Shown: positions 12,378 through 48,277 of the stretch, piece by piece
Numbering within the stretch: the stretch's first letter is position 1
How the letters are laid out: the number at the start of each line of letters is the position of its first letter
From: a bacterium
GTDB taxonomy: Bacteria > UBA8248
Length of the DNA: 64,000 bases
Direction: 5' to 3'
Assembly: GCA_965207065.1 (NCBI GenBank)
Contig: OZ242260.1
Coordinates: 4,128,001-4,192,000 of the forward strand
Translations under genes and position numbers: made by a program
Notes under the pieces: model-generated
Told to the model about the DNA's origin: nothing
Database searches by the model: none
Seen by the model: only the letters and a program-made list of their open reading frames with translations

Positions 12378-12842
12378 CTACGACCCGCCGCTGTTCTTAC
12401 TCCGGTTGGCGAATTCCTTAAAATACCCTCCGATGGAGGAAGCAGCCCAGTCAAAACCAATCTCCTGGGCTTTTTGCAGCACCTCGTCTCCGCTCAAGTC
12501 TTCTTCTTCGGCCAGATGAACAAGCGAGCAAATCCCGGCTCGCCCAACTCCTTTTCAGTGAACGTATACCGGACCGTCTTTCCTGGCCTCACGGAGCGCT
12601 TCATGGATTTGTCCCGATAAGGCATCATTCATGTTTGCGGCATTCACGGGAATATTCACAAAGTTCATTCCTAACTCTTGGGCCGCCTCTCGTTCCGCAT
12701 CGGGCGGCAACTCCGGTTCTTCCTCATCGGCGAAACGCAAATTGACGAGGGTTTTCATCCCATTATCCGCCAGATGCTCCAGATCCTTCCGTCCTGGCTG
12801 GCTTCCGAACACCAGATTTTCTGCCAACTCAAAGTAGTCCAT
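12378..12842 (-). CDS. Putative selenoprotein of DUF442/Blh-like (phosphatase-fold sulfurtransferase) family, Sec96 from TGA 12555-12557
   Basis: GSQP...GMKTLVNLR...ELGMNFVNIPV...GPVYVH-TGA-KGVGRAG; frame stays open 58 more codons to TAG 12378; U-X4-R matches the family C-X4-R loop. Confidence 0.8.
12524..12543 (-). promoter_or_regulatory. SECIS-like hairpin
   Basis: GCGAGC-CGGGATTT-GCTCGC begins 11 nt after the in-frame UGA. Confidence 0.6.
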
Positions 12843-12865
12843 ACCTTTTTCCCTCAACAATATAG

Positions 12866-13708
12866 TTAGATTCGTTGCACCAGTTCCCGACAACGAAGCA
12901 GGCAGGTCGCTTTTTCATCTTCTTCGTCGCGCTTATAAATTCCAAGCAGATTGTTGATCATTCTCTCCACGATACGGCGAGGAGGGGTTTCCTGTAAAAA
13001 CCGCATATCGAAATGATACCCGAGGCTCCGCACAATCGCCGCGCAATCCCCTACGCTCAAGCGCTTCCCCCTGTCGAATGGATCCAAAAATATGGGTTGC
13101 TCATCACCTTGGTATTTCACGATAAAATGTCCCGGCATTCCAACTCCGTGAAAGGGAAGCCCCAATCGAGCGGCAAGAATCAAATACAATGCGGAAAGCG
13201 ATATGGGGATTCCGAGCCTGCGCGCCAAAACGCGATTCATGAAACTGTTCTGCGCATCATAATAATTATCCCGCTCGCCATCGAAACGAAGCTCCCCGTG
13301 TAGATACTCCACGAATTCGTCGACAATGGCGTCGGCTTTAGTTATCCCCTTCAATCGCCTCCGCAAATGATTTTCCATGCTGAGTAGTTCGTCTTTTTTC
13401 ATCTCCATGTTTTCAAGCGGATGGCCGAAAGACGCCAGCAAGAAGCACGCGTCTTCCAAATTCACATCTTCCACCGAAGAAAGAGACCAATCCGAAAAAG
13501 CAGTTTCGATTTGCCCGTAATGGAATTCAATGAGCGATGGCGGCAGTATCACATGACCCGCATCACTTTTTTTCAGTATGCCCAGGAGTCTTTTTTGCTC
13601 ATCGGCCGAGAATTCCGAAACCTGGCGGTCCAAAGCTTCCGTCACGCCCGGTGAATCATCACCCAGCAAATGACAAATGGCCTCTAATTGCGAATCACTT
13701 AATGACAA
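12866..13708 (-). CDS. SirB1/transglutaminase-like domain protein
   Basis: NYYDAQNSFMNRVLARRLGIPISLS, GVGMPGHF and FLDPF motifs. Confidence 0.85.
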   Translation of the reverse strand: MSLSDSQLEAICHLLGDDSPGVTEALDRQVSEFSADEQKRLLGILKKSDAGHVILPPSLIEFHYGQIETAFSDWSLSSVEDVNLEDACFLLASFGHPLENMEMKKDELLSMENHLRRRLKGITKADAIVDEFVEYLHGELRFDGERDNYYDAQNSFMNRVLARRLGIPISLSALYLILAARLGLPFHGVGMPGHFIVKYQGDEQPIFLDPFDRGKRLSVGDCAAIVRSLGYHFDMRFLQETPPRRIVERMINNLLGIYKRDEEDEKATCLLRCRELVQRI

Positions 13709-13815
13709 AATAGCGTCCTTAGATTGAGCAATTGTCTCTCACCCTACCCATGCCTTTGAATTATGGTATTATCATTCGAACTTATCCACAATTCGCGCTC
13801 GACGGGAGTAATCGC

Positions 13816-15441
13816 ATGTCCACGTATGCCGATGTGGTGGCGGAGGTTCTTCTAGATGCGGGTATCGAATTCATTTTCGGTGTTCCTGGAAGTTTAAGTT
13901 CCGTCGAACTTATTGAGGCTGCGAGAAAGCGGAACATTCGCTACATCCTTTGCAGCAACGAGAGCAGTGCGGCCGTGAAGGCGGGCACGTACGGCATCAT
14001 GACGGGACGACCGGGAGTCGTGAGTACGGGCGTCGGGCCGGGGGCGGCTGCCGTCCTCCACGGCGTGGCGAACAATTATCTCGAACGCGCACCCTGCCTC
14101 ATTTTGACCGACCGTTTTTCAGATGAGCAGTTCCACCGTGAGGGTCGGCAAAAACTCGACCAGGATCGGTTGCTGCGCCCTATCACGAAAGCCACCATCA
14201 AGCTCGCAAAAGACAACGCCGCGGTAGCCATCAGGCGCGCACTGGCCTTGACCGTAGAGGGAAGGCCTGGTCCCGTGCATGTAGACCTTCCCTACGACGT
14301 CATGCTGGCGAGCGCTGAAGAAAACGATTTCCCCCCTAAGGAAGCCCCACAAAAATTTATCCGCCGCACCGGCTCGGCTCACCCTGGCATCGTCACAACT
14401 CTCGACGCAATCTCGGAGTCGAAAAACCCGATAGTGATAGCAGGCCTTCAGATAAACCGCTCGGGAAGAGAAGCAGAAAAGGAATTCGTATCTTTCACCG
14501 AAAAACTCGGAGCGCCCGTACTCGCCGCACCGTCAGCTAAGGGCATTTTGCCGGAAAACCATCCTCTCGCCATGGGCACCTTCCGGGGCGCACCCTCTGA
14601 GCGAGAATTGATAGACAAGTCGGACCTGTTCATTCTGGTGGGCTTCGACACGGTGGAAGTGTTCGCCCCCGGAAATTGGGAATATCCCCAGAAAGTGATC
14701 AATTTGGATGAAGTGCCGCATCTCGATGATTTAATTCGGCCGGAAATAGAAGTCGTCGCTCATCTCGCCGATATTCTTAGAGAGTTGAGCGCCTCCGTCA
14801 CCTCCAACCATGTCTGGAACACAGAGGAGATGGACTCCTATAAGAAAATGAGGCAATCCGCCTTGTTCCCCACCGGAGAAGGCTTGATGCCCGGCGCCGT
14901 CATTCGGATTGCGCGGGAATGCCTCCCCGACAACGGCATCATGACTGCTGATGCGGGAAGCCATAAAGTACTCGCCAACGACATATGGGAGACGAGGCGC
15001 CCTCTGGGTTATCTGACCTCCAGCGGGCTGGGTTCGATGGCTGTTGCAACGCCAGCCGCCATGGCCGCCAAATTAACCGAGCCGGGCACGCCTGTTGTCT
15101 GCCTCACCGGCGATGGAGGTTTTCTCATGCGGATTGGCGACATGGAAGTCGCCGTTCGAGAAAATATCCCATTCGTCACCGTCGTATTCAACGACCGCTA
15201 CCTGAACCTGATCAAAATCAAGCAGGACAACCGATCTTTCCCGCGCCTTGGCACCGAGTTCCGCGATACCGACTATTCATCCGTGGCGAAAGGACTGGGT
15301 TGTGAGGGCGAGAGAGTTACTTCTGAAGAAGAGTTGAAAGATGCACTAAAGCGCGCATTTTCATCCGATAAACCCTGGGTCATCGACGCCGTCATCAATC
15401 CCGACGGTTATGTAGCTGTAAAAGACGTACGCGCGGAATAA
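13816..15441 (+). CDS. Thiamine pyrophosphate-binding protein (acetolactate synthase large subunit-like)
   Basis: FIFGVPG, GRPGPVHVDLPYD and GDGGFLM...FND TPP motif. Confidence 0.9.
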   Translation: MSTYADVVAEVLLDAGIEFIFGVPGSLSSVELIEAARKRNIRYILCSNESSAAVKAGTYGIMTGRPGVVSTGVGPGAAAVLHGVANNYLERAPCLILTDRFSDEQFHREGRQKLDQDRLLRPITKATIKLAKDNAAVAIRRALALTVEGRPGPVHVDLPYDVMLASAEENDFPPKEAPQKFIRRTGSAHPGIVTTLDAISESKNPIVIAGLQINRSGREAEKEFVSFTEKLGAPVLAAPSAKGILPENHPLAMGTFRGAPSERELIDKSDLFILVGFDTVEVFAPGNWEYPQKVINLDEVPHLDDLIRPEIEVVAHLADILRELSASVTSNHVWNTEEMDSYKKMRQSALFPTGEGLMPGAVIRIARECLPDNGIMTADAGSHKVLANDIWETRRPLGYLTSSGLGSMAVATPAAMAAKLTEPGTPVVCLTGDGGFLMRIGDMEVAVRENIPFVTVVFNDRYLNLIKIKQDNRSFPRLGTEFRDTDYSSVAKGLGCEGERVTSEEELKDALKRAFSSDKPWVIDAVINPDGYVAVKDVRAE

Positions 15442-15508
15442 TGAAAATTTTTTGCTTGACACAATTCTCTCAACAACGCATGTTATACACTATCTCGTTC
15501 TCCAAGAT

Positions 15509-15605
15509 GGGGAAAGCTGCATTTCCCTGTGAATCAGAGCCCAGGCAGGGGGCTGGGCATGATATCCTCGACCTCTTGAGGGGTCTCCGCGCGGGAGGAT
15601 TGTAG
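15509..15605 (+). promoter_or_regulatory. Structured 5' leader of cold-shock gene
   Basis: Consecutive hairpins (GGGAAA/TTTCCC, GCCCAG/CTGGGC); ATCCTC 15564-15569 can pair with the RBS-containing GAGGAT 15595-15600. Confidence 0.4.
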
Positions 15606-15812
15606 GTGCCAGAAGGAACAGTTAAGTGGTTTAGCGACAAAAAAGGGTATGGCTTCATTTCTCGGGAAGATGGCGACGACATCTTCGTTCACTTTTCCGC
15701 CATTGTTGCGGATGGATTCAAATCACTGAAAGAAGGTGAAAAGGTCACATTCGAGATCACCCAAGGTCCTAAAGGACTTCAGGCGGCGAATGTAACCAAA
15801 CTAGAAGAATAA
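15606..15812 (+). CDS. Cold-shock protein (Csp family)
   Basis: [15 protein letters not shown] (RNP1), DIFVHFSAI (RNP2), [10 protein letters not shown]. Confidence 0.95.
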
Positions 15813-15850
15813 CTTTCCTCCTTATCATCGTACATCTTATCGGGTAAATG

Positions 15851-17206
15851 TTACTCACAGGCCTCGGTATACTTTAATATCGCCTGAGCGGCATTTTCCC
15901 CGCTTCTCACCGCACCCTCCACGGTGGCCGGCAGGCCCGTGCGAGTCCAGTCTCCAGCCAGAAAAAAACCTTCTATCGGAGTTTTCGTATCTATCCGGTA
16001 CCTTTGCTCCGCGACTCCGTTCCCCCAGGTGGCCGCACGCTCCCGCACCACCAAAACATCCCGAATGGGGTTAAGGGGAATCATGCGTTTCAGGCAATCA
16101 CGTGCAGACGACTCGATGGTCGACCGTTCTGCGGATGCGATGGAATCCTCCGCTCCGGCCAACAGACACACCAGATTCTTCACGTCTACTCCACTTGCCT
16201 CCGGACGAAACAGCCAGTCCCACTCCTCATTAACAATCGCTTCGAAAGGAGGCCCCTCATCCGGTTCTTCAAGCCAGCAATATGCGCTGGCAATAGGCCC
16301 CGGGCGCAACTTTCCCAGATTCGAAAAAGGCGCCCGCTCACCGAGTTCTCCACCCAGCAGTCTGCCAAGGGCGTCGGGCGGCACAGCGGAAATGACTGCG
16401 GCAGCACCCAAGGTCTCGCGCTCTTTCAAAATCACACCTTTGATTGTCGAATCATGGACTTCAAGACCGACTGCGGACTGCTGAAGCCTCACTTCTCCAC
16501 CGAGTTGACGGATGCGTTGAGCCGCTCTGTTCGCCCACATAGTACCCAATGCCTTCATCGGGACTCCCAGGGCGGCTCCTTTCGGCCCATCGGAGAAGGC
16601 TTCCCGAATCACTGCCTTGAACAATGCCGCACTTCCCTCCTCCAATGGCAAGTTCAACACCGCGCGCGCAAACGGCTCCCAAAACCAGCGCACCGTTTCA
16701 TCCTTCTGGCCCAGTCGCCCCAGCATTTCACTCATGGATTCATTCGGGTATTCATCATTCGAATTGGAAATAATCTTTGACAGACCTATCAGAAGATTCA
16801 ATTTCGCCCATAACCGGGGGCCTCGCCATTTGAGCAAGCCCCGGAGTTGCGCCAAAACTCCTCCATCCTCCGGAAATGACAATTGCGTCCGTCTGGGTGA
16901 CTCCTCTTCCCGAATCCGGTAACTCACCTCCAGAGAGGGTGAGAACAAAACATCATCTACGGCGCCCACCCTCTCCAGCAATGAGCGCAGCGCCGGGTTG
17001 GCTGCCATGAACAAATGCGGGCCCCAGTCCAACTCCAGGCCCGTGGATGAGTGCATGAAACTGCGTGCCCGGCCACCGAGAAGCTTCCCCGCCTCGAGCA
17101 CGATGACTTTGACCCCCGACTCGGCAAGACGCAAGGCGGCGGACAGGCCCGCTGCTCCGGCTCCGATGATGATAACCGGCCTCTCGAATCCGCCAAGCTC
17201 AGTCAT
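15851..17206 (-). CDS. hpnE: Hydroxysqualene dehydroxylase HpnE
   Basis: GAGAAGL, LGGRARSF, LDWGPH and LAGDWTRTGLPATVEGAVRSG; directly downstream of HpnC/HpnD domains. Confidence 0.85.
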   Translation of the reverse strand: MTELGGFERPVIIIGAGAAGLSAALRLAESGVKVIVLEAGKLLGGRARSFMHSSTGLELDWGPHLFMAANPALRSLLERVGAVDDVLFSPSLEVSYRIREEESPRRTQLSFPEDGGVLAQLRGLLKWRGPRLWAKLNLLIGLSKIISNSNDEYPNESMSEMLGRLGQKDETVRWFWEPFARAVLNLPLEEGSAALFKAVIREAFSDGPKGAALGVPMKALGTMWANRAAQRIRQLGGEVRLQQSAVGLEVHDSTIKGVILKERETLGAAAVISAVPPDALGRLLGGELGERAPFSNLGKLRPGPIASAYCWLEEPDEGPPFEAIVNEEWDWLFRPEASGVDVKNLVCLLAGAEDSIASAERSTIESSARDCLKRMIPLNPIRDVLVVRERAATWGNGVAEQRYRIDTKTPIEGFFLAGDWTRTGLPATVEGAVRSGENAAQAILKYTEACE

Positions 17207-19366
17207 TTACGCTTCCAGGAAACAGCGAAGCGCTTCTAGTAGTTTTTCCCTGGACTTCAAAGAGGGGCGATAATGCATGTGCCGAAAATGATTCTTCTCC
17301 ATCTCACTCAGAAGTCTCCGATAAATCCGGCCCATGATTCTGGCGGGAAGAAGATTCTCTTTTTTCTCATGGCGCAAGGCTTCATTCGCCCGCTCATAAT
17401 ATATACGCGCCTGATGCGCCAAGAACCGAAGAAGGCTCAAAACCTGAGAAGTATCATTTTTGTCTTTCAAATCGGAGACGGATACTCCATATTTCTCCAT
17501 TTCACTTCTCGGAATATAAATACGCCCCTCCTCGGCATCTTCCCAAACATCTCGCAAAATGTTCGTCAACTGCAGCGCTCGTCCCAAACAAACAGCGTAT
17601 TCTTTCGCAAATTCCGATTTCGCACCAAAAATTCCCAGGCACGCCAGCCCTACTGCGGATGCCACTTTGTCACAATATTTTTCAAGGTCCGAGAAATTTT
17701 CAAATCTGCTTTCTTCCAAATCCATCGCCACGCCATCACAAATCGCCCGAAAATGCTCCGGCGGCAAGTCGAATTTCCGCGACGCCCAAGAGAGTTCCCC
17801 GATTATCGGGTGGGATGGACTTTCCTCGCCAAACCGATCCAGCGCCTCTTTCCATTCGGCCAGCGAGGTTTTTTTGCCGGATATCTCGCCCGGTTCATCG
17901 GCGATGTCATCGGCCATGCGGCAATATGCGTAAACTGCTGTAATGGCGCGCCTTTTCTCCGCAGGTAGGCTGAAAAAAGACAGATAAAAATTCGACCGGC
18001 TCGCCCGAATGAACCAGCGGCAGTAAGCGCGGTTCAATGTTTCTTCTGCCTGCCGATCCACATTGGATTCGAGTCGATAGACCGGGCGAAACGCAGCAAG
18101 CAGTGACTTGGCCTTATCCCGGCCATTCAAAAGCGGCGAGCCTGCGCAAACATTCCAATTCTCACGGGAAACCGAGTCCAGCGCCGCCACGCCGCCACGC
18201 CAAATCGCACGAAGTTCACGGCCCAATGCGCCGCGGGTCCGGTACAAAAGGGGCAGGCCTTGCTTGAAGAGGTGCTTTGTCCTCTTTATCTGAAAGACCA
18301 GGAACGCTCGCAGTTGAGGCGTCGCTACGTCCGCGATCAAATCTTCTTCCGAGACGGCGAACCGTTTCATCTCATCCTGCGGCATGTAGACGATGCCGCG
18401 TTCGGCATCTTCTTTCACGTCTTGTAAGTGATTCGCAATCTGCAATGCCGTGCAGATGGCATCCGACGCGCGAAAGGCCTCGTCATCACGTATCCCGTGC
18501 AGCATGAGAACGATTCTTCCGACAGGATCCGCCGATCGGCGGCAATAATCGAGCAAGGCTTCATAGTTCGGGTACCGGAGAACCGTGACGTCTTGTTTGA
18601 ACGCCGAAAGCAGATCCAGAAAAGGTTTTAAGGGCAATCCGAATTGTTGAATCGTGTGGGAGAGCGCTATGAAAACATCTGTTTCAGCGACACCCTTCTC
18701 AGCCAATAACAGCTTCTCTTCCCATACATCCAGGCGGGCAAGGCGCTCATCAATGGGCCTTGTCGTATCCGCGATATCATCGGCGCCTCTGGCGAATGCG
18801 TAGACCGCAGCCACGTGCGGCCTTATCTTCTTCGGCAGCAACTTCGAGGCGACGGGAAAATTCTCGTAGTGGCCGACTACGATTTTCATGCACGTATCAT
18901 AAGCGGCGCTTAAATCAGCCTCAGAACTATTCTTAACCTCTTTGCCTGAACCCTTTATTCCCTCGCCATTCATGAGAGATTCTATCAACTGCGCATCCGC
19001 CGGCAGGAATTCAAAATCCCCCAATGAGGCAGGATTCACCCATTCATGTCCCGCCACTCCCAAATTCTTCGCCACTCCCCTTTCCCATTCGCAACCATAA
19101 AAGCGAAGATGAACATCTCTATCGGGATAACGGTGGCGGGTCTCCCAATGAAGACTGCCAACGCGCACTTCGATGCCCAGTTCCTCGCGAATCTCCCGTT
19201 GCAAGGCTTCACAGGGTTCCTCACCATCTTCTATTTTACCGCCGGGAAACTCCCAAAAACCCGGCATGTGACCGCCCGCCGGACGCTGACAGATGAGAAT
19301 ACGCCCCTCGTTCCAGACAATACCGGCGACGACGCTTAGCTCTGAAGCGGCAGCTTCGCTCTTCAT
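17207..19366 (-). CDS. Fusion: MutT-like Nudix hydrolase + squalene synthase HpnC + presqualene diphosphate synthase HpnD
   Basis: Nudix box GGKIEDGEEPCEALQREIREELG; HYENFPVAS...ARGADDIAD (HpnC); SNFYLSF...CRMADDIAD and QLTNILRD (HpnD), all in one 719-aa frame. Confidence 0.85.
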   Translation of the reverse strand: MKSEAAASELSVVAGIVWNEGRILICQRPAGGHMPGFWEFPGGKIEDGEEPCEALQREIREELGIEVRVGSLHWETRHRYPDRDVHLRFYGCEWERGVAKNLGVAGHEWVNPASLGDFEFLPADAQLIESLMNGEGIKGSGKEVKNSSEADLSAAYDTCMKIVVGHYENFPVASKLLPKKIRPHVAAVYAFARGADDIADTTRPIDERLARLDVWEEKLLLAEKGVAETDVFIALSHTIQQFGLPLKPFLDLLSAFKQDVTVLRYPNYEALLDYCRRSADPVGRIVLMLHGIRDDEAFRASDAICTALQIANHLQDVKEDAERGIVYMPQDEMKRFAVSEEDLIADVATPQLRAFLVFQIKRTKHLFKQGLPLLYRTRGALGRELRAIWRGGVAALDSVSRENWNVCAGSPLLNGRDKAKSLLAAFRPVYRLESNVDRQAEETLNRAYCRWFIRASRSNFYLSFFSLPAEKRRAITAVYAYCRMADDIADEPGEISGKKTSLAEWKEALDRFGEESPSHPIIGELSWASRKFDLPPEHFRAICDGVAMDLEESRFENFSDLEKYCDKVASAVGLACLGIFGAKSEFAKEYAVCLGRALQLTNILRDVWEDAEEGRIYIPRSEMEKYGVSVSDLKDKNDTSQVLSLLRFLAHQARIYYERANEALRHEKKENLLPARIMGRIYRRLLSEMEKNHFRHMHYRPSLKSREKLLEALRCFLEA

Positions 19367-19381
19367 TCCGTCTCCATGGGT

Positions 19382-20191
19382 TCAATACTGCGCATCTTGA
19401 CTCTGCGCATCTCCGATAATCGGTCTAAGAACGCTTGAAAATACAATAGGTTCCGCCAGGGGCACCGCTTCGGCCAATTCTTTTTCATTCTCAAAATACT
19501 CGCCCGGCAGGACCAATCCCGGCATCCGCAGCTTGATCGAATCCTCTGAAAACGGCCAAGGAGATATTTCCAGATCGTCCATCTTAGCGGTTTTCACTTT
19601 CAAGCCACTTTGCCTCAAGGGGTGGATGGCGTCATCGGGTGGGGTGATTTCCGGCGCCCGGCACGCCAATAGGGATAACGTATCGCAAACCCTCAGCAAA
19701 GACACGGAATTTTCGATTGCTCCTTTGTGCCCCGCTTCAATCAGGGGGTCCAACATTTTCTGCCGTTTCGATTCAGTGTGTATGAACCCGTTCAGTACTC
19801 TGGACACTTCACCGGGCGCACCCCTTCTCCCTCCCTCGGCGAGCGAAGAGAAGTGAATGCTGACCAGATAACCAGAAAACGGATGAAATGACGCGCAGGA
19901 ATCAATTCCCTCCGACCAAATCTCCACCGCCTTGTCCGCCGTTATGCCGAAAAAACTGTAGGGCAGTTTCGTCATTTCATCCCATTTCGGCGTAGCATCC
20001 GAGCGGCACCATCCAACGTCATGGTTATCGATGGCGAACAACACTTTTTCTCTGAGCTCATCCGGCGGTGAGGGAAGCGATTCTATTCCTATCCATTTTC
20101 GCGCAATCGTACCCGCGGCCCGGGCGTGGTCATGTTGACTGATGAGGCGAACATGGTTATCTCGCGGACAAACTATCATTTGAGACACCAA
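19382..20191 (-). CDS. DUF3891 family protein
   Basis: LISQHDHARAAG, AIDNHDVGW, LLRVCDTLSL and ISPWPF motifs. Confidence 0.7.
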   Translation of the reverse strand: MVSQMIVCPRDNHVRLISQHDHARAAGTIARKWIGIESLPSPPDELREKVLFAIDNHDVGWCRSDATPKWDEMTKLPYSFFGITADKAVEIWSEGIDSCASFHPFSGYLVSIHFSSLAEGGRRGAPGEVSRVLNGFIHTESKRQKMLDPLIEAGHKGAIENSVSLLRVCDTLSLLACRAPEITPPDDAIHPLRQSGLKVKTAKMDDLEISPWPFSEDSIKLRMPGLVLPGEYFENEKELAEAVPLAEPIVFSSVLRPIIGDAQSQDAQY

Positions 20192-20408
20192 TAACGGCAG
20201 AGATTACATTCCCAATCCGTTGAATCAACTGGTACAAGACTCAGGAATATTTTATTTCGCCGATGAAAAATGTAACAACCGCCATAACGACAAACAAGAA
20301 AAATCAAGTTAATTCATCATCCACTTGAACAAACGTGTGCAAAACACATAATTTTGCTACAAGTCAGTATATATTCTTGTCCTGGAAATAAGGAAATCGC
20401 GCCAAACC

Positions 20409-21921: not shown

Positions 21922-22554
21922 ATGAGCAAGTTGAAAGAACCAATCGTTGTGGTGAAATACTCAGATTACACATGACCTTTTTGTTATGTCGCCACCGTAG
22001 GTGGTACACCCGTGATTGAAGAAGACCCCGACGTCGTCGTCGAGTGGGTGAGTTGGGAGGGGAGACCACCCGGCCAGGAGTTCGCCGGCTACTCGCCTGA
22101 GCAAAAACAAGAAAGTTACGAGACGAATCACAAACCTCTCGCCGAGAAGTACAACGTGCCCATCCGGGTGGCGGGGGGCGACTACCGCACCACCAACCTG
22201 CACATGGCCACCTATTACGCCCGCGACAAGGGAAAGTTCAAGGAATTCCGGAATCGCTGCTACAAGGCCCGCTGGGAGGACGACCTGAACCTGGAGGATC
22301 TGGACGTCATCGCAGGACTCGCCGAGGATGTCGGCCTGGACGGCGAGGAAATCAAGGCCGTCATCTCCGAGGGACGCTACATCGGCGCATTGCACAGCCA
22401 GCGCGCCCAGGGGAAAGGCCTGGGTATTTACGGCATCCCCACGTTCGTGGTGGAAGGAAAGCTCTTCTGGGGCAAAGACGTCATCGACGACGTCAAGGAC
22501 GAGGTCGCGCGCGTGAAGCAAGAACGGATCGAGAAAGAGAAACAGGAGAGCTAG
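21922..22554 (+). CDS. Putative DsbA-family selenoprotein (UPFC), Sec18 from TGA 21973-21975
   Basis: GGAGG RBS then MSKLKEPIVVVKYSDYT-TGA-PFCY in frame with the 22012..22554 ORF; cis-Pro motif GIYGIPTFVVEGKLFWG. Confidence 0.85.
21987..22008 (+). promoter_or_regulatory. SECIS-like hairpin
   Basis: TGT-C-GCCACC-GTA-GGTGGT-ACA begins 11 nt after the UGA. Confidence 0.6.
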
Positions 22555-39872: not shown

Positions 39873-40469
39873 ATGATGGATACGCTTACTACTTATTTGC
39901 CTACTTTCCTTGCAAGTGGTACTAGCGTAGCTCTTGTGTCATTGGGACTAGAATACTGGAGACACGGGCGTTCCCGAAAAGATCGCGTTCGCCACTTGGC
40001 ACTTAGGATAGTATTTTCCCTAGAAGGATATGCGATTGAATGTGGCGAGAAGCTAAGTGACCACAAGCTGGCTATGGACCATGACGGTAATGCTGGCAAA
40101 TATATGAGCAATGTACCGCAACCTCCGTCATTTCCCGACAGTCTCGACTATGCACTCATGAAATCCGAAATCTTGGAAGCGATCCTTGACTTTCCGCAAC
40201 GGTGCCAAATGGCTGACCGGGAGCCTGCATTTTGGTGGGATGTCATCGCTGACATTGATTGCGTGCGCAATGCGGCCTCAGAAAATACAGTCAAAATGGG
40301 AGCGCGCGCAATTCAACTCGCACAGTGTATTCGCAAGGAATACAAACTACCGGAGAGAAACCTTACCTTCGGAAAATGGGACATTGTTGAGTTCTTTGAA
40401 ATTGAAATTAGCCGAATTTCTGAGTTGGATTCCAGACGTGCTGCAACTGTACCAAATACGTCGAACTAA
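39873..40469 (+). CDS. Hypothetical protein with N-terminal hydrophobic segment
   Basis: 198-aa AT-rich ORF with GGAG RBS; no recognised family. Confidence 0.65.
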   Translation: MMDTLTTYLPTFLASGTSVALVSLGLEYWRHGRSRKDRVRHLALRIVFSLEGYAIECGEKLSDHKLAMDHDGNAGKYMSNVPQPPSFPDSLDYALMKSEILEAILDFPQRCQMADREPAFWWDVIADIDCVRNAASENTVKMGARAIQLAQCIRKEYKLPERNLTFGKWDIVEFFEIEISRISELDSRRAATVPNTSN

Positions 40470-40529
40470 TCACTTCTCAACGCTACAAAACTCAGAACGT
40501 GCAAATTGAGCTAGAGGGAACGAAGAAGG

Positions 40530-40553
40530 GTAGGTAATACCCGTGGTACCTAC
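40530..40553. repeat. GTAG-type REP-like palindrome
   Basis: GTAGGTA-10nt-TACCTAC at the right edge of the AT-rich islet. Confidence 0.4.
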
Positions 40554-40620
40554 GCAAATCCCATCCCCCGTTTCATGCTATAATCCGGCGCTAACCCATC
40601 ACACAGAGGGAGGATGCCTC

Positions 40621-40935
40621 ATGGCCGTTACCGCAGTAGTCCGCTTCCCGTTTCCCGATGTTAAAACCGAGGAGGAGTTGATCGCGTCTTTCGAGAGTTC
40701 CTCGGCCCTTTACCGCGACGTACCGGGCCTCTTGCGCAAATACTATCTGATGTCCGAAGACCGCAGGTCAGGCGGCGGGGTCTATATCTTCGAGACGCGC
40801 GCCGACGCCGAGCGGGTCCACGACGAGGTGTGGCGCGCCAGGCTGATCGAACGCATGGGAGTCGAACCCGACGTCCAGTACTTCGACTCGCCCGTCATCG
40901 TCGACAACGAAGCCAGGGCCGCCACCACGGCATAA
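40621..40935 (+). CDS. YdhR-like monooxygenase family protein (copy 1)
   Basis: VPGLLRKYY...GGGVYIFE...SPVIVDN motifs. Confidence 0.8.
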   Translation: MAVTAVVRFPFPDVKTEEELIASFESSSALYRDVPGLLRKYYLMSEDRRSGGGVYIFETRADAERVHDEVWRARLIERMGVEPDVQYFDSPVIVDNEARAATTA

Positions 40936-40946
40936 GGAGGACGTTC

Positions 40947-41264
40947 ATGGCCGTCACCGCAATCGTTCGCTTCACGCTTCCCGAGGGAAAGACCCAAGAG
41001 GAGATGGCCGCGGCCTTCGAGCACTCGGCCCCACTCTACCGCGACGTGCCGGGTCTGGTGCGAAAATACTACCTGGTGTCGGACGACGTGCGCACCGGCG
41101 GCGGGGTCTACCTGTTCGAGTCGCGCGAGGACGCCGAGCGGCTCTATGACGACGCCTGGCGCGCCGGGATACGCGAGCGCCTGGGAGTCGAGCCCACGAT
41201 CGAATACTTCACCTCGCCCGTCATCGTCGACAACGAAGTCGGAGCGATTTCGACAGCGTCCTAG
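40947..41264 (+). CDS. YdhR-like monooxygenase family protein (copy 2)
   Basis: VPGLVRKYY...GGGVYLFE...SPVIVDN; AAGGAGG RBS. Confidence 0.8.
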   Translation: MAVTAIVRFTLPEGKTQEEMAAAFEHSAPLYRDVPGLVRKYYLVSDDVRTGGGVYLFESREDAERLYDDAWRAGIRERLGVEPTIEYFTSPVIVDNEVGAISTAS

Positions 41265-41364
41265 CGTCTCGGCGATTCGCGCTCTTTTCCTAGCTCGCCC
41301 AGGGGAGGAGATACGTTCGTTCACGTTCCATTGATGGAATGTCCAATTAAAGCCGGGAGGTAGT

Positions 41365-41976
41365 ATGTTCCGGGCCAATGTGCTGACGCTCTACCTCGTC
41401 TTCCTGGTGTTTGCCGTGGGCGGGAGAATCGCGCTTCACTACCTGGCCACCGGAGATCACGGTATACGGACGGTGAAGCCAAGCGCTTCCAGGATAGCCA
41501 AAAGCGCAAGTTTCCTGCTGCTCACCTCATTCATTGCGACGTTCGCTCTCTCAATCCTCGATGCGATTGGAACGGTTCAGCCGCAAGTCGATCTCGGCGA
41601 GTCCGCGAACACGATCGGCGCGAGTATCTCGCTGGCCGGAATCGCGCTCATGGTCGTCTCGCAATACCAGATGGGAGTTTCGTGGAGATTCGGCGTCGAT
41701 CAAGACGAGAAAACCGATTTGGTGATGAGGGGCCTCTACTCGCTCGCAAGGAATCCGATCTATAGCGGCGTGTTCCTGTTCTACATCGGCCTGCTGGTGT
41801 TGCTACCCCACATATTGATGCTGTTATTTATCACCATGACTTGTTTAAGCATCGAGATGCAGGTGCGCTTCGTCGAGGAGCCGCACCTTCGTGACTTACA
41901 CGGCGCTGCTTACGAGAAATACGCCGAGCAGACGGGGCGTTATTTCCCGAGATTCCTTCGCAACTCCGGACGATAG
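41365..41976 (+). CDS. Isoprenylcysteine carboxyl methyltransferase family membrane protein
   Basis: MGVSWRFG, GLYSLARNPIY and EEPHL...YEKY motifs. Confidence 0.85.
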   Translation: MFRANVLTLYLVFLVFAVGGRIALHYLATGDHGIRTVKPSASRIAKSASFLLLTSFIATFALSILDAIGTVQPQVDLGESANTIGASISLAGIALMVVSQYQMGVSWRFGVDQDEKTDLVMRGLYSLARNPIYSGVFLFYIGLLVLLPHILMLLFITMTCLSIEMQVRFVEEPHLRDLHGAAYEKYAEQTGRYFPRFLRNSGR

Positions 41977-41985
41977 GGGAATATT

Positions 41986-42801
41986 TCAGCCCACGAGGGC
42001 TTCGAGACGCGCGTAGATATCAGGAGGAAGCGCGCCGCCGCCCGATGCCGCCGCGTTCTCGTTCATGCGGCCCGCCCTTCCAGTGGCGGGAATGACGCTG
42101 GAGACGCGCTCATCCGCGAGAAGGTATTTCAGGAGCGCCTGACCCGGTGTTCCTGAATGGAGTGCTTTCAGTTCCGGCATACGGGCGATACTGCCCCCGG
42201 GGCCAAGCAAGCCGCTCCTCAAGTGACTGAAAGGCCGCATGACGATCACGCCCAGGTTCATCTCCTGCGCCAGGGGCAGTACCTCCTCGCGGCACTGCAC
42301 CTCGCCCAGATAGTAGGGAATCTGGATCGCGTCGTAGGCGTCCGTCTTCATGGCCTCGATGAGTTCGGGGAAATTATCGGGTCTTCTGTCCGTGACTCCC
42401 AGATGGCGGATTCTGCCCTCTTTTTGATACGCCTGCATAACCGGCGTCACCTCGCGCCAGCCCGCCATGTTGTGAATCTGCAAAAGATCGATAACGTCCG
42501 TGCGAAGCCGTTTGAAGGAGCGCTCGATGCTCGCGCGGGCCGCCGATGCGCTCGACTCCCACACCTTGGTCGCCAGGACGATTTTGTCTCTGCTACCTTC
42601 CAGCGCCTCTCCCAGCACCCGCTCGGATTCCCCGTATATCGGCGCGGTGTCGAAGAAATTGATCCCGCAATCCAGGCATTCTCGGACGATCTCGACGCAC
42701 CGGGCGGGTTCGCTGCTCGCCATGTGCATGAAATTGTGCGAAGTGCCGAGGCCGATCTCGCTCACTTCAAGGCCGGTCCTGCCGAGACGGCGATGGTTCA
42801 T
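41986..42801 (-). CDS. Aldo/keto reductase
   Basis: LGRTGLEVSEIGLG, FDTAPIYG, LATK and IDLLQIH motifs. Confidence 0.9.
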   Translation of the reverse strand: MNHRRLGRTGLEVSEIGLGTSHNFMHMASSEPARCVEIVRECLDCGINFFDTAPIYGESERVLGEALEGSRDKIVLATKVWESSASAARASIERSFKRLRTDVIDLLQIHNMAGWREVTPVMQAYQKEGRIRHLGVTDRRPDNFPELIEAMKTDAYDAIQIPYYLGEVQCREEVLPLAQEMNLGVIVMRPFSHLRSGLLGPGGSIARMPELKALHSGTPGQALLKYLLADERVSSVIPATGRAGRMNENAAASGGGALPPDIYARLEALVG

Positions 42802-42996
42802 GTTTTACTCCAGGTGATTAACTCGAGCGGCACATTGATGTTTCCTATCCCCGTCCTAACCCAGTACCCAGAAAGCACACAAAGGCGAAATCCTCGACTT
42901 ACAAGCCCCCAATCACGCGTGGATTTTCTGGTGAGGATATCGCCAGGAGAAAAAATCAATAACCTAAGCTTTATCTTCAATCACCTATATAATCCC

Positions 42997-44292
42997 CTAG
43001 TCATCTTCGAAATCGAAATCAGCTTCAGAAAGACCCCTCAATATTTCCCAAACAGCCAGAAAATTGTCGTGTGCTAGATAACCGAATTTTGGCAAATCAT
43101 CACTAAAGTAGATATGATCCATACCCAAATTGTAACAATGCTCCATGTATTCTGAGAAAAGATAGCGCAGCAGACCACATACTCGCGTGCACATATTGTG
43201 ACAAGTGACGCTCTCAAGCATACTTTCTTTGAATCCGCGCCAGTTGGGGAGGCTAATCTCGGGGCTTATTTTGTTTCCGCTTCTATTTTCAAAGAATTCT
43301 TCGAATGCTTTCTGTACGATCCGAATTGCTTGTCCCTGAAACGACGAATACAGATTGTAAAACCAATCTTCTTTTTCATCGAGTTGGTCAGTAAGGGCTT
43401 GAAGAGCACTCAGACGCGATTCTTCGGAAGCACCATAGACTTCCCCTTCATGAATATCCGCATGGAAAAGGCTGAATGGATTGAGTAGACACAAAATAAT
43501 AGTATTTGGATGTGGAAAAAGCGGACAAAGCTCATTCCAGTATTGGCGAGCGTAGACGAAGCCATGAAGGCCGAGAGCCTCCACTTTTTGTGCAATGATT
43601 CCCGTCATAATTTGAAAGGCGTCCTGAGTATAGTCAGGCGGGGTTCCGTCGCCGACCTCTCCTGCATCAATCCATCCATCAATGAGGGGGAAAGAGGCCG
43701 TTACAACCGTGAATGCTTCGTCACCAACGATGGTGTTTTCAATCCAGCGGTAATATAAGTCCCCCGGATAAAACGGCGACAATGAAACAGCGCCTCCATC
43801 TATTGTTGGTGTCAAAGCCAGAATGTTCTTATGGTTTATGATAAGTTCTTGCGCCAAGGCATCTCTGATACTTCTTCCCGTCATCGGAGCTACTAAAATT
43901 GATGATAGGCTTGACTCAGATAAAGATGGAAAAAGTGTGCAAAAGTGATTGGCATAAGAAAGAAGTTGAGTAAAAGCTTGGCGTTCCGTCTGGGTTGATT
44001 TTTTGAGTTCAATGATCACAAGACCACCGTCTTCTTCATAGTGACCTAGGAGATCGATCCTTGTTGTCGTATCCCCATCGCGCACCAGACATATCTCTTT
44101 TCCGTCCAGTGACAGTAACTCCAGACGTTTTACAAAGTTACAAATTCGCTTTTCAGTTCTTATGCGCAAAAGGTCTGATATCCTTAGAAACTCATCAGTT
44201 TTGAAGGGAGCAGGATTTTGGTGTTCAATCAATTTATAAATGTTGTTTTTGTAGTTCTTGAATAAAAAATCTCTCAGATCATTCTCTTTCAT
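42997..44292 (-). CDS. Hypothetical protein with N-terminal PD-(D/E)XK (NucS-like) endonuclease motif
   Basis: MKENDLRDFL start, RIDLLG...VIIELKK...QLLSY; AT-rich gene. Confidence 0.65.
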   Translation of the reverse strand: MKENDLRDFLFKNYKNNIYKLIEHQNPAPFKTDEFLRISDLLRIRTEKRICNFVKRLELLSLDGKEICLVRDGDTTTRIDLLGHYEEDGGLVIIELKKSTQTERQAFTQLLSYANHFCTLFPSLSESSLSSILVAPMTGRSIRDALAQELIINHKNILALTPTIDGGAVSLSPFYPGDLYYRWIENTIVGDEAFTVVTASFPLIDGWIDAGEVGDGTPPDYTQDAFQIMTGIIAQKVEALGLHGFVYARQYWNELCPLFPHPNTIILCLLNPFSLFHADIHEGEVYGASEESRLSALQALTDQLDEKEDWFYNLYSSFQGQAIRIVQKAFEEFFENRSGNKISPEISLPNWRGFKESMLESVTCHNMCTRVCGLLRYLFSEYMEHCYNLGMDHIYFSDDLPKFGYLAHDNFLAVWEILRGLSEADFDFEDD

Positions 44293-44322
44293 TCCTTCTC
44301 CTTGGCCAACATTCCCTTCTTT

Positions 44323-45009
44323 TCAACCCCCCGATACTCTCGCCAGAATCTCGCGGTAGCCCTCATACACCGCCTCCCCGTAGGCAGGCGGGGCGTGGAC
44401 CTCGGTGAGCTTCCCGCCCTCTATCGTCTTATCCGAAGCGTACGGGTTGAAGACGGCTTCCCCGCCCGGGAAAATGAGGGTGGGGCTGGTCATCGGCATG
44501 TCCTCTTCGTCCCTCAGGCGCATGGCTTCTCTGTAGTCATCCATCACGCCCTCCTCGTATGCGCCCGATTCCAGGTCTGCGCGCACTTTGGAGCCATCGA
44601 GACCCGCTTCTCCCGCCATCTCGCAAAGAACCGCGTCCTCATCCACGCGTTTTCCCTCGTAGAAGAAACCGCGCCTGATCGCGAGATCGTAGACGCGCGC
44701 CTTTTCGGGGTCCTGCGCGTATGCGCTCGCGTAGGCCTGAAAGGCGCGGATGGTTGTCCTCAGGTATTCCTCGTGCGGCCAGCTTCTGCACGGCGAGAGC
44801 GGCTCCTGAACCGCTATCAGGGGCCATTCCTGATCCACGATGTAGCGCGGCGCCGGGCGGTCGTTGATGACCTCCAGCGGAAATGCGCGCCATTTGAGAT
44901 GCAGTTTGTCCTCGAACTCGGGCATCACCTTGTCCAGCCGCGCCGCGGCCATATACGCCCAGGGTCAGTGGTATTCGTGAAAAATCTCGACAACCGCCGT
45001 ATCCGCCAT
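44323..45009 (-). CDS. Putative DsbA-family selenoprotein (UPWA), Sec15 from TGA 44965-44967
   Basis: GAGGG RBS then MADTAVVEIFHEYH-TGA-PWAYM in frame with the 44323..44952 ORF; WRAFPLE and SPTLIF motifs. Confidence 0.8.
44935..44951 (-). promoter_or_regulatory. SECIS-like hairpin
   Basis: TGGCCGC-GGC-GCGGCTG begins 13 nt after the UGA. Confidence 0.5.
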
Positions 45010-45185
45010 CTCATGCCCTCACTCGCAAGAAGTCTTATGATGAAATCAGGACGGGAAGCATTCTCTCCCCTCCCCGATGATTTACACCCCGGATTCATCG
45101 AGGGCAAGTTGTTTCCCAACCACCTCTGCCTCATGCGCTCGATAAAAGCTGTGGTATCATGCCGAAAATCATGGAGACCGCCGGA

Positions 45186-45602
45186 ATGAACCCTGAGGAT
45201 CAGCTACTCGCCACCATACTCGCAGGCGCCGAGACCATCGCCGTGATCGGTCTATCGGTCGACCCCTCGCGCACGAGCCACCGAATCGCCTCGTATATGC
45301 AGGAGGCGGGTTACCGGGTCATCCCGATAAATCCCGGAATCGAATCCGCCCTCGGCGAGAAGGCCTATCCCAGCCTGGGCGAAGTCACCGAGCGCATCGA
45401 CATCGTGAACGTCTTCCGGCGTTCCGAGGAGATACCCGCTCTTGTGGATGACGCCATCGAGAAGCGCCCGCGCGTCTTCTGGATGCAAAAGGGCATCGCC
45501 CATCCCGGCTCCGCGCGCCGCCTGGAGGATGCGGGCATCACGATGATTCAGAACCTCTGCATCAAGACCGCCCACCGGGAACTCACGCAAACCCCTCGAT
45601 GA
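45186..45602 (+). CDS. CoA-binding protein (YccU-like)
   Basis: IAVIGLS, GYRVIPINP, DIVNVFRRSE and FWMQKGI motifs; start uncertain (45159-45186). Confidence 0.85.
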   Translation: MNPEDQLLATILAGAETIAVIGLSVDPSRTSHRIASYMQEAGYRVIPINPGIESALGEKAYPSLGEVTERIDIVNVFRRSEEIPALVDDAIEKRPRVFWMQKGIAHPGSARRLEDAGITMIQNLCIKTAHRELTQTPR

Positions 45603-45663
45603 GAATGGGCCGCTGCGAATCTCGCAAAAATTCCATCGCTACCTGCTCCTCGGCGCAGGCGCT

Positions 45664-46446
45664 TTGTTGGTCGTGGGAATGTTTGGATTTTTAGAGAATT
45701 TCCTGCTCTATCATCCCTACCGGGAAATCGAGGTCACGCCCAAAACCTATCGAATCGCGTATGAGGACGTCTCCTTCAACGCAGAAGACGGCGTGCGCCT
45801 GCACGGCTGGTACGTCGCGCCCAAAGACCCGGACGGTCCGGTGCTCCTGTGGACGCACGGCAACGCGGGCAACCTCTCCCACCGCGCGGAGAACATCGCG
45901 CTCATCCAGAAAGAACTGGGAGCGGGCGTCTTTATCTTCGACTACAGAGGATACGGGCAAAGCGAGGGACGACCGAGCGAGGAGGGCTTATACGCAGACG
46001 GCAGAGCCGCGTACGCGTGGCTCATCGAGCGCGTGCCGCACGAGCGCATCTTCTTGTTCGGGCGCTCCCTGGGCGCGGCCGTGGTGGTGAAGCTCGCCGT
46101 GGAAGGAAAGAAAGCGCGCGGCCTGATTCTCGAGAGCCCCTTCGAGAGCACCCTCGCCATGGGCAAGAAGATGTTCCCCTTCCTGCCGGTGGGGTGGCTC
46201 ATCTCCGCAAAATTCGACAGCGCGGCCATGATACCCAAAGTGAAGACCCCCCTATTCGTCCTGCATGGGGATAAGGACGGAATCGTCCCCTACGCGCAGG
46301 GGCTACGGCTCTTCGAGGCGGCGGGCTCAAAACACAAGCGGTTTTTCACCATCAAGGGAGCGGGCCACAACGACACGTATTACACCGGGGGCGCGCCCTA
46401 CTGGGCGGCGTGGCGGGAATTTCTGGGAAATCCCGAGTCAAGGTGA
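45664..46446 (+). CDS. Alpha/beta hydrolase (ABHD13-like)
   Basis: HGNAGN, DYRGYGQS, GRSLG, HGDKD and GAGHND motifs; true start may be a few codons upstream. Confidence 0.85.
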   Translation: MLVVGMFGFLENFLLYHPYREIEVTPKTYRIAYEDVSFNAEDGVRLHGWYVAPKDPDGPVLLWTHGNAGNLSHRAENIALIQKELGAGVFIFDYRGYGQSEGRPSEEGLYADGRAAYAWLIERVPHERIFLFGRSLGAAVVVKLAVEGKKARGLILESPFESTLAMGKKMFPFLPVGWLISAKFDSAAMIPKVKTPLFVLHGDKDGIVPYAQGLRLFEAAGSKHKRFFTIKGAGHNDTYYTGGAPYWAAWREFLGNPESR

Positions 46447-47244
46447 ATCGGGAGTCGGACCCGTCTTCCTGGCCCTGCGCCTCGATCGAAACTCCTGCAG
46501 CAGCCTTTCATGATGCACGCTCGTGAAGAAATTCTCGACGAACGAGTTCACCGGATGGTTGATGAGGTTCTCCGGCGTATCGACCTGGACGATCACGCCA
46601 TCACGCATCACGGCGATTCGGTCGGCGATCTGAAACGCATCCGTCAAATCGTGCGTCACCAGCAGGCTGATCGCCCCGATCTCGTCGTGCACACGTCTCA
46701 ATTCTTTTCTGACCTCGAGCCTCGCGACCGGATCGATGTTCGCCAGAGGCTCATCGAGAAGAAAAACCTGCGGGGGGATGGCGATGGCGCGGCCGATGGC
46801 GACTTTTTGCTGCTGGCCCGCGCTCAGGCTGTCCGGACTGCGGCGGGACCATTTTTTGCTGATCCCCAAACGCCGCATCACGTCCTGGGCGCGCTCGTTC
46901 AGGATGCCCGGCAACCAGCGGCGGATTTTGAGCGCGAAGCTCAGGTTCGAGTATTTCTTCTCGTCAAAAACCTTCATGTGCGGCCAGAGGGCGTAGCTCT
47001 GGAACACGAGCTGCACCCCGCGCCTTCCGGGCGGGATGCCGTTCAGCCGAACGCCATCGAGGTAGATATGGCCCGCATCTTCATCCTCCACGCCGGCGAT
47101 GAGGCGTAAGAGCGTCGATTTCCCGCAGCCCGTGGGACCGACGAGCACCATGAACTCCCTGTCCTCGAGCGCCAGGGAAAGGTTGTCGACCGCGCACACG
47201 TCGTCGAAATCTTTCTTGAGTCCCGTAACAGTCAGACGGCTCAT
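46438..47244 (-). CDS. ABC transporter ATP-binding protein (MalK/PotA-like)
   Basis: Walker A GPTGCGKS, signature LSAGQQQ, LLDEP, VTHD. Confidence 0.9.
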   Translation of the reverse strand: MSRLTVTGLKKDFDDVCAVDNLSLALEDREFMVLVGPTGCGKSTLLRLIAGVEDEDAGHIYLDGVRLNGIPPGRRGVQLVFQSYALWPHMKVFDEKKYSNLSFALKIRRWLPGILNERAQDVMRRLGISKKWSRRSPDSLSAGQQQKVAIGRAIAIPPQVFLLDEPLANIDPVARLEVRKELRRVHDEIGAISLLVTHDLTDAFQIADRIAVMRDGVIVQVDTPENLINHPVNSFVENFFTSVHHERLLQEFRSRRRARKTGPTPDSP

Positions 47245-47261
47245 GCCTCTCTCCGGTTCTT

Positions 47262-47618
47262 TCAGTCCTTCGGCGCGAGTTCGTTCAGCTTCTCGACGCC
47301 CGGCGTGAAGATTTCCTCCAGCACGAGCGGCCCATCGCCCGCGTTTCGCGTGGAGTGCTCCTGGTTCGGCGGAAAAACCACGACGCCGCCCGGCCCGAGC
47401 TCCACCTCTTTCCCACCGCACGTGAACCTAGCCCGTCCCTCCAGAACGATCGTCATCTGCTCGTTGGGATGCGAATGGGGGTTGTACATGTCCACGCCGG
47501 CGCGAATCGTCTGGCGAAGCACGGTCAGGCGCTCGCCCGCCACCACTCTCTGGATCCGCTCGCCGGTATCGTGCGCTGCCATCTCTTCGAAATGATAGTG
47601 TTTCACGCTCTTCTCCAC
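47262..47618 (-). CDS. Cupin domain protein
   Basis: PHSHPNEQ...FPPNQEH motifs. Confidence 0.85.
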   Translation of the reverse strand: MEKSVKHYHFEEMAAHDTGERIQRVVAGERLTVLRQTIRAGVDMYNPHSHPNEQMTIVLEGRARFTCGGKEVELGPGGVVVFPPNQEHSTRNAGDGPLVLEEIFTPGVEKLNELAPKD

Positions 47619-47752
47619 CTGAATGGATGAAACTTTACGAAAAATTTAAGCTCCGCTGCGGGAACCGCCTGATTCATCGTATAAAAGTATTTGCATCGGC
47701 TCAAACCTTCTCCTAAAGTGTACGAAGGCCGTCTTTTTACGAGGAGACCACC

Positions 47753-48277
47753 ATGAAGCGAACTCTCATATGCATCATCGCCATCGCATTGATCGCCGCG
47801 TTCTGGACCTTTCACCAGGCGGGCGCATCGGGACTCGGACCCGGCGCGCAAGCGCCCGAGCTCAAGGGCGGGCCCTGGATTGGCGGCGAGCCCGTCAAGC
47901 TCGAAGAATTGCGCGGCAAGGTCGTTCTCCTCGACATGTGGACGTTCGCCTGAATCAATTGCGTGCGGGAGATCCCCACGCTGCGTTCGTGGCACGAGCG
48001 CTATGAGGACAAGGGGCTGGTCGTCATCGGGAACCATGCGCCCGAGTTCAACTTCGACAGGAAAAAAGAAAACATCGAAGAGGCAATGGCCAAGCTCGGC
48101 ATCAAGTACCGCGTCGTGATGGACAATGACTTCACGAACTGGAACGCCTTTCAGAATCGCTTCTGGCCGACGAAATACCTGATCGACAAAAAGGGGATCG
48201 TGCGCTTCAAGACGATTGGCGAGGGCAACCACGAGCGCACCGAAGCGATGATCATGAAGCTACTCGCTGAAAAATGA
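47753..48277 (+). CDS. Putative exported thioredoxin-fold (DipZ/TlpA-like) selenoprotein (UINC), Sec67 from TGA 47951-47953
   Basis: Signal peptide, LRGKVVLLDMWTFA-TGA-INCVREIP, GNHAPEF, WPTKYLIDKKG; the two ORF-track fragments are in frame. Confidence 0.9.
47961..47981 (+). promoter_or_regulatory. SECIS-like hairpin
   Basis: GCGTG-C-GGG-AGAT-CCC-CACGC; apical loop about 16 nt after the UGA. Confidence 0.55.

Follow-up and report, generated by a model that had tools for sequence, protein, structure and literature searches.

The 64,000-nucleotide stretch of DNA analyzed here (the window; C1:4128001-4192000 of a single-contig UBA8248 genome of 4,476,866 bp and 59.5% G+C) raises the question of why four redox genes within 36 kb, named w1 to w4 below, each contain an in-frame TGA codon. 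The original prediction, made from the letters alone, placed these codons at the catalytic cysteine position, each with a ribosome-binding site and a start codon upstream, and this proved correct on every point. Reading TGA as selenocysteine (Sec, U) yields four intact proteins (Table 1), each of the four U residues aligns with the nucleophilic cysteine of solved or database homologues, and Shine-Dalgarno-like runs (GGAGG, GAGG, GAGGAG and GAGGG for w1 to w4, respectively) are located 7–9 nt 5' of each ATG. The four TGAs are, with high confidence, Sec codons in four unrelated operons, read by tRNA-Sec(UCA) and SelB at a downstream Sec insertion sequence (SECIS) hairpin. In the mechanism that we propose, SelB would bring tRNA-Sec(UCA) to the hairpin just 3' of each UGA, and Sec would take the place of the attacking cysteine in each of four predicted thiol enzymes.

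Conservation of the codons was followed in homologues of w2, w3 and w4 from up to 41 genomes of the same family, spanning 9 genera, while w1 was sampled in 61 related genomes. TGA occupies the same column in all 145 homologues fetched and aligned, so that neither TGC nor TGT occurs there (counts for each gene are given in Table 1). The protein is conserved on both sides of U in these alignments, down to 36–61% identity. Both w2 and w3 are present in all 41 family genomes, and orthologues of w4 are present in 36 of them.

Table 1. Coordinates of w1 to w4, their Sec codons, the candidate SECIS hairpins and the genes following w4 (window positions; loop positions are nt after the UGA).
Feature	Position	Strand	Description
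w1	12378..12842	-	154-aa DUF442/protein tyrosine phosphatase (PTP)-fold sulfurtransferase-like predicted selenoprotein; P-loop H-U-K-G-V-G-R; stop TAG
w1 Sec codon U96	12555..12557	-	in-frame TGA, kept in 28/28 homologues
w1 SECIS hairpin	12524..12543	-	stem GCGAGC/GCUCGC, loop CGGGAUUU at +17/18
w2	21922..22554	+	210-aa FrnE/DsbA-like predicted selenoprotein; motif UPFC; stop TAG
w2 Sec codon U18	21973..21975	+	in-frame TGA, kept in 42/42 homologues
w2 SECIS hairpin	21991..22005	+	GCCACC / GUN loop / GGUGG; loop GUA at +21
w3	44323..45009	-	228-aa DsbA-like predicted selenoprotein; motif UPWA, Ala for second Cys; stop TGA
w3 Sec codon U15	44965..44967	-	in-frame TGA, kept in 39/39 homologues
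w3 SECIS hairpin	44937..44949	-	GCCGC / GGC loop / GCGGC; loop at +20
w4	47753..48277	+	174-aa secreted thioredoxin-fold predicted selenoprotein, similar to ResA and to the C-terminal domain of DipZ; motif UINC; stop TGA overlaps next ATG
w4 Sec codon U67	47951..47953	+	in-frame TGA, kept in 36/36 orthologues
w4 hairpin a (of the original prediction)	47961..47981	+	loop AGAU at +16
w4 hairpin b (alternative SECIS candidate)	47983..48001	+	loop GGC at +37
Genes after w4	48274..50362	+	cytochrome b561 (PF01292, E 8.6e-18), 126-aa unknown, molybdopterin oxidoreductase (PF00174, E 9.7e-28)

The machinery for Sec decoding, which the original prediction named as something to be located, is complete in the genome. 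The gene for tRNA-Sec (selC) is found at C1:690478-690570 (Rfam RF01852; score 75.9 bits, threshold 47), and ARAGORN calls the same locus tRNA-SeC with anticodon tca (UCA). SelA (TIGR00474, 579 bits), SelB (TIGR00475, 386 bits) and SelD (TIGR00476, 334.5 bits) are all matched above their cut-offs. The SelB match is full-length (positions 1–580), the selA and selB genes lie close together, and selD itself carries one in-frame TGA and would encode a Sec-containing protein. The genetic code is standard, as had also been predicted. TGA is the commonest stop codon and terminates 1368 of the 2926 open reading frames (ORFs) of at least 300 aa genome-wide, and w3 and w4 themselves terminate at TGA (w1 and w2 at TAG). 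A reassigned code in which TGA would be read as sense, such as table 4 or 25, is therefore ruled out.

A hairpin of the predicted geometry, with a loop about 16–21 nt after the UGA and a G as its first or second base, is located downstream of all four codons. Because these hairpins share almost no sequence and their stems hardly vary, synonymous-site variation and geometry were chosen as tests. The six stem pairs of w1 are canonical in all 28 sequences, with a single A-U/G-U switch; the w2 stem is invariant in 42 sequences except for its terminal pair, while the third loop base is free to vary; and the five pairs of w3 are canonical in all 39 sequences. The codons that form these hairpins are constrained at the nucleotide level. 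Synonymous diversity is 0.074 in the w1 hairpin (gene mean 0.410; 1 of 112 windows along the gene as low), 0.177 in that of w2 (gene mean 0.397; 5 of 203) and 0.072 in that of w3 (gene mean 0.458; 2 of 203). The gene w4 has two candidates. Hairpin a keeps its inner three pairs in 34–36 of 36 sequences and is weakly constrained (0.230 against a gene mean of 0.332; 20 of 115 windows as low), and its loop G is lost in two orthologues (AAAU in L174 and ACAU in L185). Hairpin b has seven pairs that are canonical in 35–36 of 36 sequences, with pair 36-48 occurring as U-G, C-G and U-A, and a synonymous diversity of 0.223 against the same gene mean (17 of 124 windows as low).

The same geometry is enriched at Sec sites throughout the genome. 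To count as conforming, a hairpin had to have at least 5 bp and a loop of 3–10 nt lying 13–38 nt after the UGA, with G as the first or second loop base. In the minimum free energy (MFE) fold, 42 of 54 Sec codons are followed by such a hairpin, compared to 30.5% of the Cys-codon controls (n = 1500) and 23.7% of the TGA stops (n = 957). The corresponding Fisher p of 3e-12 is overstated, since paralogues share hairpins and are not independent. Loops at the Sec sites are mostly GGUC, GUA, GUG, GGC and GGG (GGUC/GUN/GGN), at +16 to +21, and presumably resemble the element of E. coli fdhF. The general bacterial SECIS model (bSECISearch) likewise has a hairpin directly after the UGA, a loop 16–37 nt away and an early loop G; a comparison made without running bSECISearch revealed no demonstrable difference at the sites of this genome. 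The SECIS had been expected to be divergent in sequence, which did not hold up, as 42 of the 54 sites fit the general model with loops of the GGUC/GUN/GGN type. A search with Rfam at gathering thresholds returned two tRNAs in the window and nothing at the four Sec sites.

Several observations weigh against the Sec interpretation. The folding energies of the four hairpin regions are at chance relative to shuffled sequences (z = -0.16, -1.33, +0.08 and -2.61 for w1 to w4), and the mean MFE at the 54 Sec sites (-18.27) is close to that at the 1500 Cys-codon controls (-18.17). Hairpin stability was accordingly discarded as a test for SECIS, as neither the shuffle z-scores nor the genome-wide MFE discriminate. 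No stem contains a compensatory two-sided change; the stems are invariant or show one-sided G-C/G-U and A-U/G-U changes only, so that the structural evidence is one of conservation, not covariation. Either hairpin of w4 could be its SECIS, and the two cannot be told apart by conservation, which is about equal. In 5 of the 41 family genomes, the search with w4 matched Cys-type paralogues only and found no orthologue. For w1, the coding potential under a Markov model is weak (7.6 bits 5' of the UGA and -0.2 bits 3' of it), and its TIGR01244 score of 47.1 is below the NCBIfam cut-off of 85.85. The filters of the genome-wide census described below were of our own making, and 33 candidates were dropped as gene junctions before being tested against Pfam.

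It also has to be considered that sequence by itself cannot distinguish Sec from Cys or another residue at a UGA. The codons could be read through without selenium, by a near-cognate or suppressor tRNA or by a tRNA-Sec mis-loaded with Cys, and Cys, Trp or some other residue would then be inserted. This seems very unlikely in a genome that has complete selA, selB, selC and selD, with SelD itself UGA-containing, that uses TGA as its main stop codon, and in which the sites all fall at the catalytic Cys of families for which Sec forms are known. A different possibility concerns the signal, namely that the lineage employs a divergent or novel recoding signal instead of an ordinary bacterial SECIS. 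In its favour, the MFE fold shows no hairpin that fits the model at 12 of the 54 Sec codons, there are two candidates for w4, the nearer of which has lost its loop G in two orthologues, and no more than 87.4% of BSepDB entries are reported to have a canonical SECIS (PMC13326102). However, absence from one MFE fold does not mean that a hairpin is absent, the other 42 sites conform with loops typical of the general model, and SelB matches TIGR00475 over its full length; we consider a novel signal highly improbable. Finally, one base change converts either Cys codon into TGA, and two other read-through candidates of this genome do look broken (L028, with an AEP-TOTE primase domain, and L036, which encodes an MMPL transporter), but nonsense mutations or assembly errors that leave w1 to w4 as pseudogenes can practically be discounted in view of the TGA that all 145 homologues share across independent assemblies, followed by conserved protein, the nucleotide-level constraint 3' of the codon, and independent DNA contigs from two other public runs (X7 and X3) that cover the Sec codon of w3 with no change there among the differences listed.

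With the four TGAs taken as Sec codons, w1 is the one gene that may be new. It would encode a stand-alone DUF442/PTP-fold sulfurtransferase-like protein with Sec as the attacking residue. Two Pfam matches span U96, PF22741 (E 3.6e-10, score 39.9 against a cut-off of 27) and PF04273 (DUF442; E 3e-7, score 31.2 against a cut-off of 26.1). Among NCBIfam models, Blh (NF040641) matches residues 6–135, with no model reaching its cut-off. Alignment to solved structures places U at the Cys of the PTP signature VHC..GVGR (HC..R loop). When 1.84 billion representatives were searched with HMMER, 1552 relatives were found at E ≤ 0.001. In an alignment of w1, its paralogue L048 and 23 database relatives, His95 and Arg101 are invariant in all 25 sequences, while the U column of w1 and L048 is occupied by Cys in 22 of the 23 database homologues and by Ser in one. 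The described family, DUF442/BLH_phosphatase (PF04273; TIGR01244 sulfur transferase; N-terminal domain of Blh NF040641; PDB 2f46), thus shares with w1 the stand-alone architecture of ~150 aa and a P-loop H-C-x4-R with invariant His and Arg, and differs in having Cys (or, once, Ser) where w1 and L048 have Sec.

The TGA of w1 is found in 53 of the 57 matches listed from the related genomes, including all 22 congeners; the four listed matches that lack it are partial or weak. A second clade of w1 paralogues, at 36–48% identity, also has TGA. This putative Sec form comprises two paralogues per genome and is confined, among the 61 genomes sampled, to one family of a lineage labelled Nitrospinota. 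In public annotation, w1 is cut at 95 aa. Of its 27 close database relatives, 26 are stubs of 84–95 aa, most of which stop exactly at the TGA, as anticipated by the claim that standard ORF calling breaks such genes; one of the 27 is named only 'sulfur transferase domain-containing protein'. Upstream of w1 is a transglutaminase-like gene, and ilvD lies downstream in convergent orientation.

A full-text literature search for DUF442 together with selenocysteine returned no paper. The word 'phosphatase' is absent from the main text of BSepDB (PMC13326102), and the w1 family appears in no selenoprotein list accessible to us, among which the BSepDB family list (Table S2) is not included. We tentatively propose, as an assignment about as likely as not, that w1 and its paralogue form an undescribed selenoprotein family of stand-alone DUF442/PTP-fold sulfurtransferase-like proteins with Sec as the P-loop nucleophile (H-U-x4-R). 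If confirmed, a Sec-bearing PTP-fold sulfurtransferase would extend the use of Sec to another catalytic fold.

The other three genes have described counterparts. In the product of w2 (DSBA PF01323, E 3.2e-28), U corresponds to the leading Cys of the FrnE motif CPWC (5cnw), and the protein would be FrnE/DsbA-like with UxxC; its gene follows one for a MetX-like acetyltransferase. The product of w3 (DSBA PF01323, E 2.1e-14) has U at the first Cys of the FrnE CPWC and Ala at the second, and would be a DsbA-like protein with UxxA. No RNA-library contig was found on w3 in the public runs checked. Downstream of w3, in the same frame and 30 nt 3' of its TGA stop, is a 431-aa gene without a Pfam family (42997-44292, minus strand).

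The predicted w4 protein, which contains AhpC-TSA (PF00578, E 1.4e-13) and Redoxin (PF08534) domains, is closest to the C-terminal domain of DipZ (2hyx, E 2.6e-41), in which the leading Cys of the CINC motif is the counterpart of U; three paralogues have Cys in the U column. It would be a secreted thioredoxin-fold protein with UxxC, resembling that domain, at the head of a cytochrome b/molybdenum-oxidoreductase operon. The gene heads the cytochrome b561/molybdopterin oxidoreductase operon listed in Table 1, a layout that we take to recall MsrQ/MsrP (YedZ/YedY). A 271-nt RNA-library contig (X18, 47858-48128) is identical across the UGA of w4. Two small RNA-library contigs lie on this gene, and such libraries can hold DNA, so they are not proof of transcription.

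The Global Ocean Sampling (GOS) survey of selenoproteins (PMC2398784) lists the families DsbA 1 (UxxC), DsbA 3 (UxxV) and Prx-like 1/Trx-like (UxxC), as well as UGSC, AhpD-like, OsmC-like and deiodinase-like selenoproteins. As these cover the types seen here, w2, w3 and w4 belong to described selenoprotein families. Like DsbA 1, w2 combines PF01323 with UxxC. Like DsbA 3, w3 combines PF01323 with U-x-x-non-Cys, and differs from it in having Ala instead of Val at the fourth position. Like Prx-like 1/Trx-like, w4 combines PF00578 with UxxC; its closeness to the C-terminal domain of DipZ has no counterpart in the GOS table, which names no relationship to DipZ (PMC2398784, accessible part).

To place the four genes in the context of the genome, every in-frame TGA was scored for coding potential on both sides using a fifth-order periodic Markov model trained on the genome. 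The candidates were then searched against a six-frame read-through database, and 84 fetched regions were scanned with Pfam. From 88 candidates (84 regions and the 4 in the window), 55 genes with 56 Sec codons were accepted. The listed Pfam stretch spans U in 47 of the 55 genes. The other eight were accepted on NCBIfam, near-U Pfam or U/U and U/C paralogue evidence: SelD on an NCBIfam match that spans U, GrdB and three PrdB/GrdB-like genes in which the Pfam model stops just before U, and one rhodanese and two of the AhpD-like genes on the pairing of U with U or C in an aligned paralogue. As the 33 gene-junction candidates stood outside the Pfam test, 55 is a lower bound. The expectation of an unusually large selenoproteome is thus supported by at least 55 selenoprotein genes in a genome-wide TGA scan.

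The largest groups are AhpD/CMD-like (14 genes) and UGSC (8), followed by OsmC-like (5), DsbA-like (5), Prx-like (4), deiodinase-like (3) and PrdB/GrdB-like (3) genes; glutaredoxin-like, rhodanese and DUF442-like genes (the last being w1 and L048) number two each, and GrdA, GrdB, DsrE, Trx, DUF3179, ArsC and SelD are represented by one gene each. No Sec-containing formate dehydrogenase was detected, as none of the 11 molybdopterin-oxidoreductase matches genome-wide contains a TGA, and no NiFe(Se) hydrogenase was found in the genome. The glycine reductase components GrdA (L083) and GrdB (L084) are present. The composition, built almost wholly of small thiol-oxidoreductase folds, suggests a heavy reliance on selenium for redox homeostasis, not for energy metabolism. 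At this gene density, the occurrence of four such genes in one window, which had been viewed as special, is what chance gives: in 5000 simulations that scattered 53 genes randomly over 4.48 Mb, 1638 produced at least one 36-kb window with four or more of them. Their clustering was rejected as a feature on the basis of this simulation.

The genome appears to belong to the lineage filed by BSepDB under GTDB phylum UBA8248, judging from relatives that are labelled Nitrospinota. In our literature search, the BSepDB paper (PMC13326102) was the only one found on selenoproteins in Nitrospinota or UBA8248, and it has already published how rich in selenoproteins the lineage is. Table 2 of that paper places three UBA8248 genomes, with 54, 50 and 48 selenoprotein genes, among the ten richest bacteria; these share Nitrospinota/Nitrospinae labels with the relatives of the present genome and are of the same size class (at least 55 here). 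The paper gives counts without the loci of w1 to w4, whereas the present count comes from an independent scan by coding potential, Pfam and paralogues (PMC13326102). Earlier records were 39 selenoprotein genes in Syntrophobacter fumaroxidans (PMC5029168) and 57 in the Olavius algarvensis delta-1 symbiont (PMC1976440); the latter has 63 in BSepDB, where 63 is the maximum (PMC13326102). The delta-1 symbiont is likewise uncultured and symbiont-type, with a very large selenoproteome rich in UxxC/CxxU thiol-oxidoreductase homologues, and all its selenoprotein genes were described as mis-annotated; its set is led by FrhD (12) and HdrA (10), in place of the AhpD-like and UGSC proteins that predominate here (PMC1976440).

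Measured against the BSepDB top of 63 (PMC13326102), the selenoproteome described here is among the largest on record, and its set contains no formate dehydrogenase or hydrogenase. We regard the finding as real but mostly known, with low novelty except for w1. Its practical consequence is that dozens of redox genes in genomes of this lineage are split in two by gene callers at the UGA, so that metabolic reconstructions and protein catalogues miss the main thiol-redox inventory of the lineage.

Most of the remaining read-through candidates were discarded. After the Pfam scan, L033, L038, L043, L050, L053, L055, L058, L060, L067-L071, L073, L080, L085, L086, L089, L091, L094, L098, L100, L102 and L264-L266 proved to be gene junctions, toxin-antitoxin pairs or normal stops, and L025, L029, L046 and L263, for which no family was found, were left uncounted. 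The AEP-TOTE primase L028 (C1:335829-336314, minus strand; PF22548, E 2.4e-64) has its TGA inside the SGNG-x-HVW motif, at a non-Cys position; it is probably a disrupted defence gene, not a selenoprotein. In the MMPL-family transporter L036 (C1:766662-768941, plus strand), the in-frame TGA aligns with Gly of five paralogues and is probably a nonsense mutation. Two diverged F-type conjugation sets (TraL, TraN, TraF), at C1 ~2.34–2.36 and ~3.18–3.20 Mb, contain the pairs L070/L086 and L071/L085; their U/U matches are false and arise from conserved gene junctions.

A few loci are more ambiguous. The CoA-transferase-like L081 (C1:3021183-3021932, minus strand), in which PF01144 spans residues 3–197 and a 53%-identical paralogue has Cys at U76, was not counted and may be a 56th selenoprotein. 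L265 (C1:2640084-2641529, plus strand) is an amidase ORF that ends ...P-P-M-C-G-G-TGA-F-S-TGA just 5' of the Sec-rhodanese L076; its first TGA was taken as a normal stop, but might instead belong to a C-terminal CGGU tail. L263 (C1:4122330-4122470, minus strand), ~5.5 kb before the window, is a 46-codon ORF (...A-C-P-T-U-V-G-G...) without a Pfam family that adjoins the Sec-DsbA-like L101. In the AhpD-like L054 (C1:1639612-1640214, plus strand), a first TGA at 1639846 is followed at a distance of three codons by a second at 1639855; the resulting sequence G-G-U-Y-G-U holds a UxxU motif that corresponds to CxxU in the paralogue L079.

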